From the NCBI RefSeq assembly GCF_054482525.1, contig NZ_CM137006.1: a stretch of DNA of 64,000 nt. The stretch is one strand, 5' to 3'. The translations under genes were made by a program, and so were the position numbers. Under the pieces are notes generated by a model. It had not been told where the DNA came from. It made no database searches and saw nothing but the letters and a program-made list of their open reading frames with translations. Positions 2,988 to 60,909 of the stretch are shown here, piece after piece; position 1 is the first letter of the stretch, and every line of letters begins with the position of its first letter.

Positions 2988-3086
2988 AGTAATGTAACAA
3001 TTTTCTAACGTGATCTTCATCACAAATAATGACAATTAAAACCGCTTAAATGCTTCCGAGGTGTCTACCTGACCAGTGAGGAATTT

Positions 3087-4118
3087 ATGCAAGTGAAAAC
3101 ACAGTCCTGCGTTGTTGCAGGCAAGAAAACTGTTGCCGTTACCGAGCAGACGATAGATTGGAATAATAATGGAACATTAGTACAAATAACCCGAGGTGGA
3201 ATTTGCGGTTCCGATTTACATTATTATCAGGAAGGAAAAGTAGGTAATTTCATGATAAAGGCACCGATGGTGTTAGGTCATGAAGTTATCGGTAAAGTTA
3301 TTCATAGCGACTCATCAAAATTACATGAAGGGCAAACGGTAGCCATTAATCCGTCTAAACCGTGCGGTCACTGCAAATACTGCATTGAACATAACGAGAA
3401 TCAGTGTACAGAGATGCGTTTTTTTGGCAGTGCCATGTATTTCCCTCATGTTGATGGTGGCTTTACCCGTTATAAAATGGTCGAAACGTCGCAATGTGTC
3501 CCTTATCCGGCCAAAGCTGACGAAAAGGTTATGGCTTTTGCCGAACCTTTAGCCGTCGCGATTCATGCCGCACATCAGGCCGGCGAGTTACAGGGCAAGC
3601 GAGTATTTATTTCTGGTGTTGGGCCCATTGGTTGCCTGATTGTCAGTGCTGTGAAAACACTGGGGGCCGCGGAAATTGTCTGTGCCGATGTGAGTCCCCG
3701 TTCCCTTTCGCTGGGCAAAGAGATGGGGGCGGATGTGCTCGTAAACCCACAAAACGACGACATGGATCACTGGAAAGCGGAAAAAGGCTATTTCGATGTC
3801 AGCTTTGAAGTGTCCGGTCATCCTTCATCAGTGAATACCTGTCTGGAGGTCACTCGTGCACGCGGCGTAATGGTGCAGGTAGGTATGGGAGGCGCGATGG
3901 CAGAATTCCCAATGATGACATTGATTGGTAAGGAGATTTCACTCAAAGGCTCTTTCCGTTTTACCAGCGAATTTAATACCGCAGTGTCATGGCTGGCGAA
4001 TGGCGTTATCAATCCACTGCCTTTACTGAGTGCTGAATATCCCTTCACTGACCTGGAAGAGGCGCTACGTTTCGCCGGTGATAAAACCCAGGCAGCAAAA
4101 GTCCAGCTTGTTTTCTAA
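3087..4118 (+). CDS. idnD: L-idonate 5-dehydrogenase
   Basis: 343 aa, zinc-ADH motifs (GICGSDLHYY, GHEVIG). Confidence 0.92.
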   Translation: MQVKTQSCVVAGKKTVAVTEQTIDWNNNGTLVQITRGGICGSDLHYYQEGKVGNFMIKAPMVLGHEVIGKVIHSDSSKLHEGQTVAINPSKPCGHCKYCIEHNENQCTEMRFFGSAMYFPHVDGGFTRYKMVETSQCVPYPAKADEKVMAFAEPLAVAIHAAHQAGELQGKRVFISGVGPIGCLIVSAVKTLGAAEIVCADVSPRSLSLGKEMGADVLVNPQNDDMDHWKAEKGYFDVSFEVSGHPSSVNTCLEVTRARGVMVQVGMGGAMAEFPMMTLIGKEISLKGSFRFTSEFNTAVSWLANGVINPLPLLSAEYPFTDLEEALRFAGDKTQAAKVQLVF

Positions 4119-4141
4119 GAGATAAATAAAGGAATAATACA

Positions 4142-4906
4142 ATGAACGATCTATTTTCACTGGCAGGAAAAAATATCTTGATTACCGGTTCAGCACAGGG
4201 CATTGGCTTTTTACTGGCAACCGGCCTGGGTAAATATGGCGCACAAATAATTATTAATGATATTACTGCCGAACGCGCAGAACTTGCTGTAGAAAAACTC
4301 CACCAGGAGGGTATTCAGGCCGTTGCCGCACCTTTTAATGTTACTCATAAACATGAAATTGATGCCGCCGTTGAACATATCGAAAAGAACATCGGCCCCA
4401 TTGATGTGCTGGTGAATAACGCCGGTATCCAGCGCCGTCATCCTTTTACTGAGTTCCCTGAACAAGAGTGGAATGATGTGATCGCAGTAAACCAGACCGC
4501 CGTGTTCCTGGTATCGCAAGCGGTAACTCGTCACATGGTTGAACGCAAGGCAGGTAAAGTTATTAATATTTGCTCGATGCAAAGCGAACTGGGACGTGAC
4601 ACCATCACCCCTTATGCCGCATCGAAAGGGGCGGTAAAAATGCTCACCCGCGGCATGTGCGTCGAGCTGGCGCGCCACAATATTCAGGTCAACGGTATTG
4701 CGCCGGGCTATTTCAAAACAGAAATGACTAAAGCACTGGTTGAGGACGAAGCCTTCACCGCCTGGTTGTGCAAACGGACCCCCGCCGCACGCTGGGGAGA
4801 TCCGCAGGAACTGATTGGTGCTGCGGTGTTCCTTTCTTCAAAAGCCTCTGATTTCGTAAACGGCCACCTGTTGTTTGTTGATGGCGGCATGTTAGTGGCT
4901 GTTTAA
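4142..4906 (+). CDS. idnO: 5-keto-D-gluconate 5-reductase (SDR family)
   Basis: 254 aa, SDR Rossmann motif TGSAQGIG and catalytic YAASK. Confidence 0.92.
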   Translation: MNDLFSLAGKNILITGSAQGIGFLLATGLGKYGAQIIINDITAERAELAVEKLHQEGIQAVAAPFNVTHKHEIDAAVEHIEKNIGPIDVLVNNAGIQRRHPFTEFPEQEWNDVIAVNQTAVFLVSQAVTRHMVERKAGKVINICSMQSELGRDTITPYAASKGAVKMLTRGMCVELARHNIQVNGIAPGYFKTEMTKALVEDEAFTAWLCKRTPAARWGDPQELIGAAVFLSSKASDFVNGHLLFVDGGMLVAV

Positions 4907-4970
4907 CAGCCACCATCCTACGTGCAGCGCGAAAGCGCTGCTTTTCTGGCACTAATAAGAGATAAAGACT

Positions 4971-6290
4971 ATGCCATTAATCATTATTGCGGCAGGCGTC
5001 GCGCTGCTTCTTATCCTGATGATCGGCTTTAAAGTTAACGGCTTTATTGCCCTCGTTCTGGTAGCTGCCGTCGTCGGATTTGCCGAAGGGATGGATGCAC
5101 AGGCCGTCCTGCACTCTATACAAAATGGTATCGGCAGCACGCTCGGCGGGCTGGCAATGATCCTCGGTTTCGGGGCCATGTTAGGCAAGCTGATTTCTGA
5201 TACGGGCGCGGCACAACGTATCGCCACTACGCTGATTGCTACTTTTGGTAAAAAACGCGTGCAATGGGCGCTAGTGATCACCGGTCTGGTTGTGGGCCTC
5301 GCCATGTTTTTTGAAGTGGGTTTTGTCCTGCTGTTGCCGTTGGTATTTACCATCGTAGCATCATCAGGATTACCCCTGTTGTATGTTGGCGTACCAATGG
5401 TAGCAGCGCTCTCTGTAACCCACTGTTTTCTGCCGCCACATCCAGGGCCTACTGCCATCGCGACTATCTTTGAGGCTAATCTCGGAACGACTTTACTGTA
5501 TGGATTTATCATTACCATTCCGACAGTTATTGTCGCAGGACCGCTGTTTTCTAAACTGCTAACTCGCTTTGAGAAAGCACCACCGGAAGGCTTATTTAAT
5601 CCTCATCTGTTTAGCGAAGAGGAGATGCCCTCCTTCTGGAACAGTATTTTCGCTGCCGTGATCCCGGTCATCCTGATGGCTATCGCCGCCGTTTGTGAAA
5701 TTACGTTACCGAAAACTAACACCGTGCGCCTCTTCTTTGAATTTGTCGGTAACCCTGCCGTTGCGCTGTTTATTGCCATTGTTATTGCGATTTTCACACT
5801 GGGCCGACGTAATGGACGCACCATCGAGCAAATCATGGATATCATTGGGGATTCTATAGGCGCTATCGCGATGATTGTGTTTATTATCGCTGGCGGCGGC
5901 GCGTTTAAGCAGGTATTAGTAGATAGCGGTGTCGGGCAGTATATTTCACACTTAATGACCGGAACTACACTTTCGCCGTTATTGATGTGCTGGACTGTTG
6001 CGGCGCTGTTGCGTATCGCTCTGGGCTCTGCCACCGTCGCGGCCATTACCACCGCGGGTGTGGTGTTGCCGATTATCAACGTTACCCATGCCGATCCCGC
6101 TTTAATGGTACTGGCAACCGGTGCGGGCAGCGTGATCGCGTCACACGTAAACGACCCTGGCTTCTGGCTATTTAAAGGGTATTTTAATCTGACGGTTGGT
6201 GAAACGTTGCGTACCTGGACGGTGATGGAAACCCTTATTTCTATTATGGGTTTGCTGGGCGTGTTAGCCATTAACGCCGTATTGCACTGA
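4971..6290 (+). CDS. idnT: L-idonate / 5-ketogluconate / gluconate transporter (GntP family)
   Basis: 439 aa polytopic membrane protein, matches IdnT. Confidence 0.92.
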   Translation: MPLIIIAAGVALLLILMIGFKVNGFIALVLVAAVVGFAEGMDAQAVLHSIQNGIGSTLGGLAMILGFGAMLGKLISDTGAAQRIATTLIATFGKKRVQWALVITGLVVGLAMFFEVGFVLLLPLVFTIVASSGLPLLYVGVPMVAALSVTHCFLPPHPGPTAIATIFEANLGTTLLYGFIITIPTVIVAGPLFSKLLTRFEKAPPEGLFNPHLFSEEEMPSFWNSIFAAVIPVILMAIAAVCEITLPKTNTVRLFFEFVGNPAVALFIAIVIAIFTLGRRNGRTIEQIMDIIGDSIGAIAMIVFIIAGGGAFKQVLVDSGVGQYISHLMTGTTLSPLLMCWTVAALLRIALGSATVAAITTAGVVLPIINVTHADPALMVLATGAGSVIASHVNDPGFWLFKGYFNLTVGETLRTWTVMETLISIMGLLGVLAINAVLH

Positions 6291-37527: not shown

Positions 37528-37818
37528 TCACTCATCCAGCCGTTTAGTCGCGTCTTCATAAACGGCTGAGTTCTCTCTCTTACCAATAGCTATCACCAAC
37601 ACGAGCAACTCTTTATCGTTAACCTGATAAACCAGGCGATATCCCTGTGTGCGCAGCTTAATTTTGTAGCAGTCCGGTAAATCCCGCAGTTTAGCCGATG
37701 GATTGCGCGGCCTTTTCAGCACATCCTCAAGCTTTTTTTTAAATTGTTCCCGGACTGTCACGCCCAGTTTTTGCCACTCTTTCAGCGCCCGCGGATCAAA
37801 CGCCAGCTCATAGTTCAT
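37528..37818 (-). CDS. RelE/StbE-family type II toxin (mRNA interferase)
   Basis: 96 aa from MNYELAFDPRALKEWQKLG...; closely resembles K-12 RelE (MAYFLDFDERALKEWRKLG...DCYKIKLRSSGYRLVYQV...). The ORF-track entry 37528..37896 over-extends the N-terminus. Confidence 0.8.
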   Translation of the reverse strand: MNYELAFDPRALKEWQKLGVTVREQFKKKLEDVLKRPRNPSAKLRDLPDCYKIKLRTQGYRLVYQVNDKELLVLVIAIGKRENSAVYEDATKRLDE

Positions 37819-38050
37819 CCAGTCGGACCTTAATGGCCTCTTGTGGGTTGGCCAGTCGTTCCCTGACAGTGCGTAACAAGGCTTCTTCACTATCACTGAC
37901 AGTGAGCGTTTTTACCGGCATTCGTCCATTTTCCGCAACGTACTGAAACAGCAGTCGCACTGCTTCAGTAGGCGTGATATTTAATTTTTCCAGCACCGCA
38001 TAAGCCTCATTTTTCAGTTTGTCATCCAGGCGGACGTTAAGTGTGGCCAT
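37808..38050 (-). CDS. RelB/DinJ-family antitoxin
   Basis: 80 aa MATLNVRLDDKLKNEAYAVLEKL... resembling RelB; overlaps the toxin start by 11 nt; GGAGGC RBS upstream. Confidence 0.8.
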   Translation of the reverse strand: MATLNVRLDDKLKNEAYAVLEKLNITPTEAVRLLFQYVAENGRMPVKTLTVSDSEEALLRTVRERLANPQEAIKVRLDEL

Positions 38051-40834: not shown

Positions 40835-41630
<796 letters not shown>

Positions 41631-41734
41631 ATCAGCATACTTGTCCTTAGCCTTCTGCAGTGACAGCTGGTAGTACAGCGTGCTTCTGGCCAGCCCTGCA
41701 GCCTTTAACAGGTCAGACTGGCAGTGTCCGCACC

Positions 41735-42265
41735 TCAGGCTCCGGATGACTTTCGTTTTTTCTCCAGCTCCTGGCGCTTTTTTTCCAGGAGATGCTCCTG
41801 CATGGCTTTCAGATATGCATTTTCTGCGCGAAGATAACGCAGCTCATTCTTCATCTCTTCCGGCGTCATGTTTGCCTCGTTTTCATGGGTATCATCAGAA
41901 CGGGTCATGCTTTTCTCCTTCCTGCGCCTGATAAAGGCCTCATTACCAGATTTGCGGTAGCCTTTTATCCAGTTTTTAACCGTGTTGTGGCTGGGAATGT
42001 TAAACCGGGCAGCTACCCGGGGTAGAGACTCAGAATGCCCGAGAGCATAAAGAACCACGCAAAGTTTATCTTCAGGAGAATAGCTACGCTTGTGTCTGCA
42101 ATCCAGTGCCCGAGGACCGTGAAGAAGAAAAAGATTAATCCAGTGTGAGAGGCTGGTGTGAGAAAGTTGAAAGAGTTTTGCCGTAGAAATGATGCCTGCA
42201 TGACCAGCCAGGTAGTGATTTACAGCGGCAAGTTTTACTTCAAATGAATGTTTCATAAACTGCAC
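41735..42265 (-). CDS. IS3-family transposase OrfA (HTH DNA-binding protein)
   Basis: 176 aa with HTH and C-terminal leucine-zipper-like region (LRYLRAENAYLKAMQEHLLEKKRQELEKKRK). Confidence 0.8.
   Translation of the reverse strand: MQFMKHSFEVKLAAVNHYLAGHAGIISTAKLFQLSHTSLSHWINLFLLHGPRALDCRHKRSYSPEDKLCVVLYALGHSESLPRVAARFNIPSHNTVKNWIKGYRKSGNEAFIRRRKEKSMTRSDDTHENEANMTPEEMKNELRYLRAENAYLKAMQEHLLEKKRQELEKKRKSSGA
41777..41785 (-). other. programmed -1 ribosomal frameshift site (A AAA AAG) joining OrfA to OrfB
   Basis: Minus-strand gaaaaaaag heptad near the orfA C-terminus; orfB frame is -1 relative to orfA. Confidence 0.55.
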
Positions 42266-42307
42266 CTTCAGATGTCAGATTATGTCCAACATTTGGGGTG
42301 CAGTTCA

Positions 42308-42375
42308 TCAAGCGTCGCATCAGGCACTATGCTCAAATGCCGGATGCGGCGTAAACGCTTTATCCGGCATACACA
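42308..42375. repeat. REP palindromic units, right half of interrupted unit plus adjacent REP
   Basis: tcaagcgtcgcatcaggc ... atgccggatgcggcgtaaacgctttatccggcatac. Confidence 0.7.
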
Positions 42376-48627: not shown

Positions 48628-49584
48628 TCAATACCCCATGTTTTTCTTCTTCTCTAACTCTTCTTTTGCGGTATTAGGCAGGTAAAGGGTGGACTTGGTC
48701 AGGGTCAGCTTTTCAGGCATGGTGCCGTCTTTTTTATATTTCTCCAGCGCATCAAAAGCGGGGCCTGCCATGTTCGGCGTCAATTCAACACTGGCGTTCG
48801 CTTCGCCATCAATCATCGCTTTGTAGATGTCCGGCACACCGTCGATAGAGCCTGTCAGGATATCTTTGCCCGGTTTCAGGCCCGCTTCTTTAATTGCCTG
48901 AATTGCACCAATCACCATGTCATCGTTATGGGCGTAAACCATGCAGATGTTTTTGCCGTTGTTTTCCGCTTTGATAAAGCTCTCCATCACTTCTTTGCCT
49001 TTGCTGCGGGTGAAGTCACCTGACTGCGAGCGGATAATTTTGATATTTGGCGCATTCTTAATGGCTTCGGCAAAGCCTTTCTTACGGTCAATGGCGACGC
49101 TGGCCCCAACGGTGCCCTGCAGCTCCACCACGTTGCATGGTTTGCCATTCACTTCTTTTACCAGCCAGTCACCAATCAACTTGCCTTCGAGGATGTTGTC
49201 GGCGGTGACAGTGGTCATATAGAGAGATTTGTCTTTCACATCGATGGAACGGTCAAGCAAGAAGACCGGGATTTCGGCATCTTTCGCCTCTTTTAATACC
49301 GGCTCCCAACCGGTCGCTACCACTGGAGCGATAAAGATCGCATCCACCCCTTGCGCGACGAAGGAACGTACCGCTTTAATCTGGTTTTCCTGCTTTTGCT
49401 GACCATCGGCAATTTTCAACGTAATTCCGCGCTTTTCGGCTTCACTTTTCGCCACATTGGTTTCTGCGGCGCGCCAGCCGGATTCCGATCCGACCTGCGA
49501 AAATCCAACGGTTAATGGAGCGGCCAACGCCATAGACGACATGGCTGCCGAGACTGCAGAGACTACAAGTAAGCGTTTCCACAT
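48628..49584 (-). CDS. ytfQ: galactofuranose ABC transporter periplasmic binding protein
   Basis: 318 aa with signal peptide. Confidence 0.92.
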   Translation of the reverse strand: MWKRLLVVSAVSAAMSSMALAAPLTVGFSQVGSESGWRAAETNVAKSEAEKRGITLKIADGQQKQENQIKAVRSFVAQGVDAIFIAPVVATGWEPVLKEAKDAEIPVFLLDRSIDVKDKSLYMTTVTADNILEGKLIGDWLVKEVNGKPCNVVELQGTVGASVAIDRKKGFAEAIKNAPNIKIIRSQSGDFTRSKGKEVMESFIKAENNGKNICMVYAHNDDMVIGAIQAIKEAGLKPGKDILTGSIDGVPDIYKAMIDGEANASVELTPNMAGPAFDALEKYKKDGTMPEKLTLTKSTLYLPNTAKEELEKKKNMGY

Positions 49585-49654
49585 AGGGTTGTCCTCGTCG
49601 GGGTAATTATTATTGGTGAAAAGATGTTCGCGAAAAAACTATAGACAATTCGTT

Positions 49655-49675
49655 ATGTAACGGATTGCGTTACAT
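49655..49675. promoter_or_regulatory. candidate operator palindrome upstream of ytfQ
   Basis: atgtaacg-gattg-cgttacat: perfect 8-bp inverted arms, about 70 nt upstream of the ytfQ start in the ytfQ-ppa divergent region. Confidence 0.35.
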
Positions 49676-49893
49676 CACACTTCAAAAAAGTAAATAAAAC
49701 GTTAATCACAAGTTTGTAATCGCTTTCACCTCACTATGAAAAATGCGGCTACGGTTATGGATTTTCCTGCTCTTTAAACCATCTTAAAACTGGCTAAAAA
49801 GGAAAATGAAGAAGAAAACAAGCGAAGACATTCGGCGCGAGTTGGCTATAATACTCGGCACTTGTTTGCCACATATTTTTAAAGGAAACAGAC

Positions 49894-50424
49894 ATGAGCT
49901 TACTCAACGTCCCTGCGGGTAAAGATCTGCCGGAAGACATCTACGTTGTTATTGAGATCCCGGCTAACGCAGATCCGATCAAATACGAAATCGACAAAGA
50001 GAGCGGCGCACTGTTCGTTGACCGCTTCATGTCCACCGCGATGTTCTATCCGTGCAACTACGGTTACATCAACCACACCCTGTCTCTGGACGGTGACCCG
50101 GTTGACGTACTGGTCCCGACTCCGTACCCGCTGCAGCCGGGTTCTGTGATCCGTTGCCGTCCTGTTGGCGTTCTGAAAATGACCGACGAAGCCGGTGAAG
50201 ATGCGAAACTGGTTGCGGTTCCGCACAGCAAGCTGAGCAAAGAATACGATCACATTAAAGACGTTAACGATCTGCCTGAACTGCTGAAAGCACAGATCGC
50301 TCACTTCTTCGAGCACTACAAAGACCTCGAAAAAGGCAAGTGGGTGAAAGTTGAAGGCTGGGAAAACGCAGAAGCCGCTAAAGCTGAAATCGTTGCCTCC
50401 TTCGAGCGCGCAAAGAATAAATAA
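49894..50424 (+). CDS. ppa: inorganic pyrophosphatase
   Basis: 176 aa, matches E. coli Ppa. Confidence 0.97.
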
Positions 50425-50502
50425 GTTCTTCTAGCGTAATAACCCTGAACGCCGGGCTTCGGTTAGTAGGGGTTTTTTATGCCCGCGATAAATAAACACA
50501 CC

Positions 50503-50853
50503 TTATTCCACCACCGCCTGCAAACGTAATAACGCCTCTTCCACCACCTCACCCGCAGCCAGACCAATACGCTTTGCCAGCCGGGCGCGTAGATCCATCA
50601 TCCGCACCTGATTCACCAGCACCACGCCGTGCACATCGCCTTCTTCGCAATGTAAAGGAACGCTAAATCCGGCATAACGGGCAAAATTTCCGCCCTGCGT
50701 AATGGGGGCCACCAGCGTCATTCCCAGTTGATTAAAGGCTTGAACGGAGAGCACAAGCGCAGGTCGACCAGCACCTTGCTGTTCATGGCCGCTTGCTGGA
50801 TCAAAGCCAACCAGCACAATGTCTCCCCGTTCAAATTCACTTTTCTTTACCAT
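50503..50853 (-). CDS. chpB: MazF-family endoribonuclease toxin ChpB
   Basis: 116 aa, MVKKSEFERGDIVLVGFDPASGHEQQGAGRPALVLS... Confidence 0.93.
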   Translation of the reverse strand: MVKKSEFERGDIVLVGFDPASGHEQQGAGRPALVLSVQAFNQLGMTLVAPITQGGNFARYAGFSVPLHCEEGDVHGVVLVNQVRMMDLRARLAKRIGLAAGEVVEEALLRLQAVVE

Positions 50854-51098
50854 ATTTCGTCACCCGCAGGGGTGGATTTACCCCAGACATCCTGCTCGCT
50901 AAGTTCCGTGGCGTTCATGTCACACTGTGCCAGCAGTTCATCAAGCGAGTAGCGCCTGGAGATGGGTGTCAGAATCAGTTGATTGTTGCTCACTTGCGCC
51001 TCCACGCTCTGCCCCGGCCGTAAGTTAAGTTCTTTCATCACAACATTAGGAATGACCATACCTGAACTGTTCCCCCATCTTTTTATGGTAATACGCAT
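50847..51098 (-). CDS. chpS: antitoxin ChpS (AbrB/MazE fold)
   Basis: Start MRITIKRWGNSSGMVIP (83 aa); overlaps chpB by 7 nt. Confidence 0.9.
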   Translation of the reverse strand: MRITIKRWGNSSGMVIPNVVMKELNLRPGQSVEAQVSNNQLILTPISRRYSLDELLAQCDMNATELSEQDVWGKSTPAGDEIW

Positions 51099-51270
51099 CT
51101 GCACCTCCTTAAGTTATACAAAGTATAACTCACGGTGCTACAGGAAACGTTTTACCCCTGCGCATTTGTGAACGCCAGCAGAGTTTTTTATGCGTTAACA
51201 GATATGGAAAGCGGCTCGGAGAGAAAAGCAAAAGGTGAGGGAATTACAAAACAGAATGCGAGTCGTCTCG

Positions 51271-51299
51271 CAAAAAACAACGCCACCCGAAGGTGGCGT
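51271..51299 (-). terminator. rho-independent terminator downstream of ytfP
   Basis: Hairpin cgccaccc-gaa-ggtggcg followed on the minus strand by TTGTTTTTTG. Confidence 0.7.
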
Positions 51300-51309
51300 A
51301 TGCGTATGG

Positions 51310-51651
51310 TTACTTATCCCTGTCTAACCAGTCGCCGCTTTCAATTAGCTTTAATCCATCGACGGGTCGTTGATAAACGTACATCCATGCACTCCCGTAC
51401 GGCGTCTGAATCAACTGGCGCGCGTATTCACCGCCCCTGGTGCGCAAGGCATCAAGTTCGGCCAGCGTGGCGTTGTCAATACGATAAACTTCACCGTGTA
51501 CTGTTCCGTTCCCCAGAACTGCGCCTGGATAGTGGCCCAGGCTATACAACTGGTAGTTATCGATACTGAAATCGCCCAGTAACTGGGCATTGGTCATCCA
51601 GTGACTGTTGCCTTGTTTGTGGCGTAAACTGCCGTAGACAAATATTCGCAT
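51310..51651 (-). CDS. ytfP: gamma-glutamylcyclotransferase family protein
   Basis: 113 aa, MRIFVYGSLRHKQGNSHWM... Confidence 0.9.
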   Translation of the reverse strand: MRIFVYGSLRHKQGNSHWMTNAQLLGDFSIDNYQLYSLGHYPGAVLGNGTVHGEVYRIDNATLAELDALRTRGGEYARQLIQTPYGSAWMYVYQRPVDGLKLIESGDWLDRDK

Positions 51652-51653
51652 TG

Positions 51654-57205
<5,552 letters not shown>

Positions 57206-60265: not shown

Positions 60266-60820
60266 ATGACCCTACGCAAGATTCTGGCACTCACCTGCCT
60301 GCTGTTGCCGATGATGGCTTCCGCACATCAGTTCGAAACCGGTCAGCGAGTGCCGCCGATTGGCATTACCGATCGGGGCGAGTTGGTGCTTGATAAAGAT
60401 CAGTTTAGCTACAAAACCTGGAACAGCGCGCAGTTAGTGGGAAAAGTGCGAGTACTGCAACATATTGCTGGTCGCACCTCTGCAAAAGAGAAAAATGCGA
60501 CACTGATTGAAGCGATTAAAGCTGCGAACTTACCGCACGATCGTTACCAGACCACCACCATTGTTAACACCGACGACGCAATTCCGGGTTCCGGCATGTT
60601 TGTGCGCAGCAGTCTGGAGAGTAATAAAAAGCTTTATCCCTGGTCGCAGTTTATTGTCGATAGCAATGGCGTCGCGCGCGGTGCCTGGCAGCTGGATGAA
60701 GAAAGTTCCGCTGTAGTGGTGCTGGATAAAGACGGTCGCGTGCAATGGGCCAAAGACGGGGCGCTCACACAGGAAGAGGTGCAGCAAGTGATGGACCTGC
60801 TGCAAAAGTTGCTCAAATAA
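60266..60820 (+). CDS. ytfJ: periplasmic protein YtfJ
   Basis: 184 aa with signal peptide. Confidence 0.9.
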   Translation: MTLRKILALTCLLLPMMASAHQFETGQRVPPIGITDRGELVLDKDQFSYKTWNSAQLVGKVRVLQHIAGRTSAKEKNATLIEAIKAANLPHDRYQTTTIVNTDDAIPGSGMFVRSSLESNKKLYPWSQFIVDSNGVARGAWQLDEESSAVVVLDKDGRVQWAKDGALTQEEVQQVMDLLQKLLK

Positions 60821-60851
60821 TGGCAATAACATAAATTCTGCAAAAATAATT

Positions 60852-60882
60852 TTCCCCTATCGTTATCTATGGGATAGGGGAA
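60852..60882. terminator. hairpin terminator downstream of ytfJ
   Basis: ttcccctatc-gttatctat-gggatagggg. Confidence 0.5.
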
Positions 60883-60909
60883 TTAAGCCTCTGAGTTCTT
60901 ACGCCGAAC

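Follow-up and report, generated by a model that had tools for sequence, protein, structure and literature searches.

The chpSB operon in the window

The gene pair at positions 50503–51098 of the window (the whole 64-kb stretch of DNA analysed) is almost certainly the type II toxin-antitoxin (TA) operon chpS-chpB of the E. coli chromosome, also designated chpBI-chpBK, in an intact allelic form. It is an already known system, found here in its usual chromosomal place and with ordinary allelic variation. Both ORFs lie on the minus strand, exactly where the original prediction had placed a ChpS/ChpB pair. As indicated by the ORF and by Pfam and NCBIfam matches, chpB (nt 50503–50853) is predicted to code for the 116-aa ChpB (ChpBK) toxin, a putative endoribonuclease of the PemK/MazF fold, and chpS (nt 50847–51098) for the 83-aa ChpS (ChpBI) antitoxin, having a predicted AbrB/MazE-type DNA-binding domain at the N-terminus and an acidic C-terminal tail with a final Trp. 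The layout is that of a type II TA module: both proteins are small, and their genes overlap on one strand, with that of the antitoxin directly upstream.

The assignment is carried first by the family models. ChpB matched the NCBIfam ChpB equivalog NF007320 with 226.8 bits against a cut-off of 129 (E = 3.9e-68, residues 1–116 on model positions 1–116), and ChpS matched the ChpS equivalog NF008463 with 192.8 bits against a cut-off of 101 (E = 7e-58, residues 1–83 on model positions 1–83); since both matches run end to end at such E-values, a chance match is ruled out. At the level of the broader domains, ChpB scored 88.7 bits with Pfam PF02452 (PemK_toxin, cut-off 23.1), and residues 5–49 of ChpS scored 44.5 bits with PF04014 (MazE_antitoxin; MazE/AbrB/SpoVT, cut-off 24.7).

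The two genes overlap by 7 nt (ATGGTAA, nt 50847–50853, minus strand), the chpB start codon falling within the chpS end. Indeed, read on the minus strand, chpS ends with GAA ATA TGG TAA and chpB begins with ATG GTA AAG, an arrangement consistent with translational coupling. The expectation that this overlap would be as in K-12 was borne out in strain W3110, where chpB and chpS occupy nt 680–1030 and 1024–1275 of the retrieved segment, respectively. A 7-nt overlap of the ATGGTAA type was also found in E. whittamii, Escherichia sp. E1V33, Trabulsiella and homologues of the Burkholderia group.

A Shine-Dalgarno sequence AGGAGG (nt 51104–51109, minus strand; …TTAAGGAGGTGCAGATG) is located 5 nt 5′ of the chpS AUG. 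In the mechanically generated ORF list the chpS ORF is prolonged to a GTG at nt 51104; because this GTG falls within the Shine-Dalgarno sequence, the ATG at nt 51098 was taken as the start codon. In accordance with the end coordinate 51098, positions 1–83 of the NCBIfam ChpS model correspond to residues 1–83 of the ATG-started protein. Two plus-strand ORFs covering the pair (74 and 76 aa) were taken as shadow ORFs of the well-supported minus-strand genes.

The gene order around the pair, ytfQ(-), ppa(+), chpB(-), chpS(-), ytfP(-), tamB(-), is identical in K-12 and SMS-3-5. Moreover, the DNA of the 885-bp ppa–ytfP interval recurs with 100% identity in over 20 E. coli chromosomes, SMS-3-5 among them, each of which is annotated with chpB/chpS there. 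Like the window, the K-12 chpS-chpB operon (Masuda et al. 1993 and Zhang et al. 2005, as cited in PMC2814082 and PMC5408214) codes for proteins of 83 and 116 aa from genes that overlap by 7 nt, and it shares the neighbouring genes as well as the palindrome and the motif upstream (see below); over the 885-bp region it is 98.2% identical to the window at the DNA level, with allelic differences only. The comparison with K-12 ChpB and ChpS, suggested as a check of the original prediction, gave 98.3% identity for the toxin (114 of 116 residues) and 95.2% for the antitoxin (79 of 83). The window ChpB carries R89 and G101 in place of H89 and D101 of W3110, whereas in ChpS the residues S12, V19, R27 and T64 correspond to A, I, Q and A in W3110. 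Among the alleles checked, only that of K-12 has H89; the common state is R89, which is shared by EDL933, 00-3076, JNE151685 and other Escherichia species. Overall, nothing was found against the identification as chpSB, and caveats concern its function only.

Upstream region and boundaries of the transcription unit

In the region upstream of chpS (nt 51099–51309), a perfect 19-bp palindrome with 8-bp arms, AGTTATAC-TTT-GTATAACT, was found at nt 51112–51130, 2 nt upstream of the chpS Shine-Dalgarno sequence. It contains a −10-like TATACT (nt 51127→51122, minus strand). K-12, E. whittamii and Escherichia sp. E1V33 carry the palindrome without any change, and Trabulsiella has a nearly retained form, GGTTATACTTTGTCTAACT, in an upstream region that is otherwise unalignable. 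As the mazEF and parD operators suggest by analogy, the palindrome is probably the operator for ChpS or for ChpS-ChpB. A scan with the sigma-70 consensus retrieved no minus-strand promoter for chpSB, and its sole match, within chpB on the plus strand, is no more than chance would yield; when read by hand, the TATACT element is accompanied by a poor −35 upstream.

Upstream, the chpSB transcription unit is bounded by the ytfP intrinsic terminator (nt 51280–51299, minus strand), made of an 8-bp GC-rich stem followed by a T run; chpSB should therefore have its own promoter. Two tandem hairpins were predicted at this terminator (−25.2 kcal/mol, z = −4.3), which is conserved in all alleles and in Trabulsiella. 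On the other side, between the convergent ppa and chpB, a hairpin on the plus strand (AACCCT…AGGGGT followed by TTTTTT, nt 50441–50481) is the probable terminator of ppa. Its sequence is invariant in the chpSB, relic (see below) and K-12 alleles, and its fold energy is not significant (z = −0.45 on the plus strand and +0.73 on the minus strand). No convincing intrinsic terminator was seen on the minus strand 3′ of chpB (fold z = +0.73). An Rfam scan of nt 49500–52000 at E ≤ 1 gave no match, thus no known RNA element or antisense RNA was detected in this interval.

Further upstream, the sequence TGCGA-N6-TCGCA (nt 51257–51272) represents a candidate CRP site of the kind that depends on Sxy (CRP-S). 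Sites of this class have TGCGA as their core (PMC1635313), and Sxy overexpression up-regulates chpSB according to a 2025 review (PMC11951105); the link between Sxy and chpSB rests on this review, since three other Sxy/CRP-S papers make no mention of chpSB. The motif occurs a single time in the 64-kb window, against 0.15 occurrences expected, which together with the reported induction of chpSB by Sxy argues for a regulatory site, and we put the chance of its being a CRP-S site at about even. It could just as well be no more than a small hairpin, the second in the region of the ytfP terminator, with no role in chpSB regulation: the scan flags it as terminator-like (a 6-bp stem and then a T-rich tail) directly after the main ytfP terminator, some 150 nt separate it from the palindrome downstream, by eye no −10 stands out at the canonical CRP spacing, and in E. 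whittamii one half-site is altered by a mismatch. The Escherichia sp. E1V33 sequence retains the two half-sites and differs at all six spacer bases, a pattern that speaks for the CRP-S site, yet fits a stem-loop too.

Three states of the ppa–ytfP site and the ChpB family beyond E. coli

Presence and absence across strains, also proposed as a check, were assessed in 5,426 complete E. coli genomes, where chpSB proved to be intact in about 57%: the ppa-chpSB-ytfP stretch was whole in 3,085 genomes, and in 3,097 when a narrower query was used. Most of the other genomes have a 379-bp interval instead, as for example BL21(DE3) (nt 1501–1879 of the retrieved segment), in which the chpB stop codon region is followed by 127 nt having 72% identity to the N-terminal half of chpB (E = 1e-14). 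This chpB relic is broken by stops in every frame, and both chpS and the palindrome are deleted. A third allele, consisting of the relic plus esiB (nt 3001–5035 of the retrieved segment), was found with at least 80% query coverage in 188 genomes. The three states have been published by Pastorello et al. 2013, with 53% of 47 genomes carrying chpBS, 32% neither and 15% esiB (PMC3735183); in the passage concerned, the short allele is described as being without both genes and the relic is left unmentioned. As a separate observation, the ppa-chpSB-ytfP stretch of E. coli strain 746 (NZ_CP023353.1) measures 1,883 bp versus 1,758 bp and matches in two pieces, with about 125 bp inserted at some point of the interval.

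When the window was compared with BL21, the non-coding flanks inside the interval were 88–92% identical, whereas ppa, ytfP, tamB, ytfQ and the ytfQ–ppa spacer were 97–99.7% identical. Because of this difference, the chpSB and relic haplotypes look much older than their surroundings. The idea that the BL21-type relic is closer to the Trabulsiella chpB than to the E. coli chpB was rejected, as the relic gave no match to Trabulsiella and was 72–73% identical to all three Escherichia alleles.

The family was searched for among species-representative genomes by a degenerate DNA pattern for the shared toxin motif APITQGGxFARYAGF, which retrieved 59 loci, mostly from Pseudomonas, Burkholderiales and Xanthomonadales. 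The only Enterobacteriaceae among them were E. whittamii, Escherichia sp. E1V33 and Trabulsiella odontotermitis. At nearly all of the 59 loci a gene for an 80–86-aa antitoxin is found upstream, overlapping the toxin gene by 1, 4 or 7 nt. In E. whittamii and Escherichia sp. E1V33 the pair is located between ppa and ytfP, and in Trabulsiella it adjoins tamB-ytfP; from this shared placement it follows that the site was occupied before E. coli diverged, which fits with the relic being a product of decay. The pairs from Pseudomonas, Burkholderiales and Xanthomonadales, as well as those of Burkholderia plasmids, resemble chpSB in size (toxins of 112–117 aa, antitoxins of 80–86 aa) and in an antitoxin ending in W-x5-G-x-E-x-(W/L), but differ in their contexts and upstream repeats, and the identity with chpSB is only 50–62% for the toxin and 30–42% for the antitoxin. 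In the pair of the Burkholderia glumae plasmid pR52p (nt 1256–1851 of the retrieved segment), gene lengths and the 7-nt overlap are identical to those of chpSB. On plasmids, chpSB copies at 99% identity or more were found in seven records only, the next-closest copies being those of Burkholderia, with 61–62% identity, the same gene lengths and the 7-nt overlap.

We tentatively propose, as a possibility that we hold to be rather doubtful, that two very old haplotypes coexist in E. coli: an intact chpSB with a conserved putative operator and, possibly, an Sxy/CRP-S second promoter as in hicAB, versus the short relic allele. If true, the presence or absence of chpSB would reflect a long-lived polymorphism, or re-import by recombination from a distant lineage, and not a recent loss.

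Proposed function and selection

In K-12, ChpBK cleaves single-stranded RNA at ACY (Y = U, A or G), on either side of the A, and the cut end carries a 2′,3′-cyclic phosphate (PMC5408214); the toxin is grouped with the ribosome-independent mRNA interferases (PMC2814082). Given the identity of about 98% with K-12 ChpB, a ribosome-independent cleavage at ACY may be expected for the window allele as well. ChpBK lowers protein synthesis only to about 60%, and its acidic pI has been proposed as the reason (PMC5408214, review). The calculated pI of ChpB is 5.90 for the window allele and 5.51 for K-12, the window protein having two fewer net negative charges.

By analogy with MazE-MazF and Kis-Kid, ChpS would be made first from the shared transcript, with chpB being translationally coupled through the 7-nt overlap. 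The acidic C-terminal tail of ChpS would then block the ChpB dimer, and its AbrB/MazE-type N-terminal domain would bind the 19-bp palindrome over the −10-like element, leading to repression of the operon, as modelled on related systems. Should the breakdown of labile ChpS outpace its renewal, ChpB set free would be expected, again by analogy, to cleave mRNA. The upstream TGCGA-N6-TCGCA motif may add an Sxy/CRP-dependent induction.

Residues relevant for activity were compared in an alignment of ChpB, K-12 ChpB, Kid and MazF. ChpB R30 and T52 align with MazF R29 and T52, the catalytic pair of MazF, and both columns are invariant. H17 of Kid, the toxin of plasmid R1, has its counterpart in ChpB H23, and ChpB also keeps the GxRP and PxT motifs. 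On the contrary, the proposed catalytic residues R73 and D75 of Kid are replaced by L79 and N81 in ChpB, including the K-12 allele, a substitution that may be linked to the weak activity reported for ChpBK.

The literature has not settled on a biological role for chpSB, and the operon is dispensable, given that about 43% of complete E. coli genomes lack it or have it in decayed form. It might be asked whether the genes are intact and the module nonetheless domesticated or fading, with little or no toxin activity, and kept by drift or by linkage to ppa/ytfP instead of serving as a functional addiction or stress module. In accordance with this, ChpBK is a weak toxin in K-12 (PMC5408214), Kid R73/D75 are not kept in ChpB, about 39% of complete E. 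coli genomes have only the decayed chpB relic and about 4% the relic plus esiB, and experiments with Lon overproduction showed no effect of deleting chpB together with further TA loci (PMC7167474). Such a fading appears unlikely, however. About 3,090 genomes have both reading frames at full length, the Arg/Thr pair of the MazF type is invariant, the pair architecture and the putative operator are conserved into Trabulsiella, and cleavage by ChpBK has been demonstrated biochemically (PMC5408214). Furthermore, dN/dS stays at about 0.1–0.2 over divergence at the species and genus level: compared with E. whittamii, Escherichia sp. E1V33 and Trabulsiella odontotermitis, values of 0.08–0.10 were obtained for chpB and of 0.09–0.19 for chpS, and both genes are under purifying selection.

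Relation to mazEF and to plasmid pemIK modules

The original prediction had described the pair as MazEF-paralogous, and this holds: E. coli mazE-mazF (chpA), located elsewhere in the genome and adjoining relA, codes for a toxin 40% identical to ChpB and an antitoxin 33% identical to ChpS. ChpBK is a weaker toxin than MazF and cuts at ACY, whereas MazF cuts at ACA (PMC5408214). The full length of ChpS can be aligned with MazE from the MazE-MazF crystal structure (chains of 1ub4/1mvf), the match covering MazE residues 5–82 and including the Trp-ended acidic C-terminal tail (terminal …E(I/V)W); the antitoxin ending W-x5-G-x-E-x-W is conserved across the ChpS-family homologues.

By sequence, the closest characterised relative of ChpB is Kid/PemK (45%) and not MazF, which fits with chpB having reportedly been described at first as a pem homologue. 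Kid, 45% identical to ChpB, also gave the best PDB match (1m1f, E = 6e-21), and plasmid copies of PemK are 43–44% identical to ChpB. The kis-kid and pemI-pemK modules (parD/pem) of plasmids R1 and R100 share the fold family and the operon order with chpSB, but chpSB is chromosomal and not plasmid-borne. The cleavage specificity differs as well, being ACY for ChpBK and UAH or UUACU for Kid (PMC5408214).

Divergence pointing to a different MazEF-family member had been named beforehand as the result that would contradict the assignment, and the scores went the other way, with the MazF equivalog NF007386 reaching 62.7 bits on ChpB (cut-off 120) and the MazE equivalog NF007312 34.8 bits on ChpS (cut-off 113). 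Although the PemK/MazF and MazE Pfam domains are in common and Kid is the closest solved structure, an identity of the pair with mazEF itself or with a plasmid-integrated pemIK/kis-kid is refuted, to the point of being practically inconceivable, by these equivalog scores and by identities of 40% to MazF, 33% to MazE and 44–45% to PemK/Kid versus 98% and 95% to K-12 ChpB and ChpS, the pair occupying, moreover, the chromosomal chpSB site.

A second TA locus and other features of the window

The window was also said to hold two type II TA loci about 13 kb apart, and a second one was indeed located at nt 37528–38050, at a distance from chpSB of 12.45 kb between the nearest edges and of 13.0 kb between the starts. 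It comprises, on the minus strand, a 96-aa toxin of the RelE/ParE fold (nt 37528–37818; PF05016, 55.9 bits; TIGR02385, 29.9 bits) and an 80-aa RelB/DinJ antitoxin (nt 37808–38050; NF008412, 130.1 bits; PF04221, 58.6 bits). The RelE/RelB-type pair lies between nrdG and cybC, with the same annotation in SMS-3-5, and is an accessory locus much rarer than chpSB, being found in 389 of the 5,426 complete E. coli genomes and in none of their plasmids.

Two differences from SMS-3-5 were observed in the window. An insertion of about 1.49 kb (nt 40847–42337) is located between yjgA and mpl and contains minus-strand ORFs of 176 aa (nt 41735–42265) and 240 aa (nt 40908–41630), presumably related to orfA and orfB of the IS3 family (IS150-like). 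A segment of about 1.2 kb between ytfJ and cysQ (nt 60808–62032), absent from SMS-3-5, contains a 303-aa minus-strand ORF (nt 60910–61821) that we take to correspond to K-12 ytfI.

Significance

The window is an E. coli chromosomal segment with a textbook chpSB operon and a rarer RelE/RelB-type module, and its description aids annotation and strain typing. The additions made here to what is known of chpSB are modest and consist of the operator-like palindrome, the candidate CRP-S site and the relic nature of the "absent" allele. Two of the observations go slightly beyond routine annotation: genomes described as being without chpSB keep the remains of a decayed chpB, on a haplotype that has diverged deeply, and the operator-like palindrome is conserved out to Trabulsiella. 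Together, the relic and the conservation of the palindrome could feed studies on the gain, retention and loss of chromosomal TA systems.
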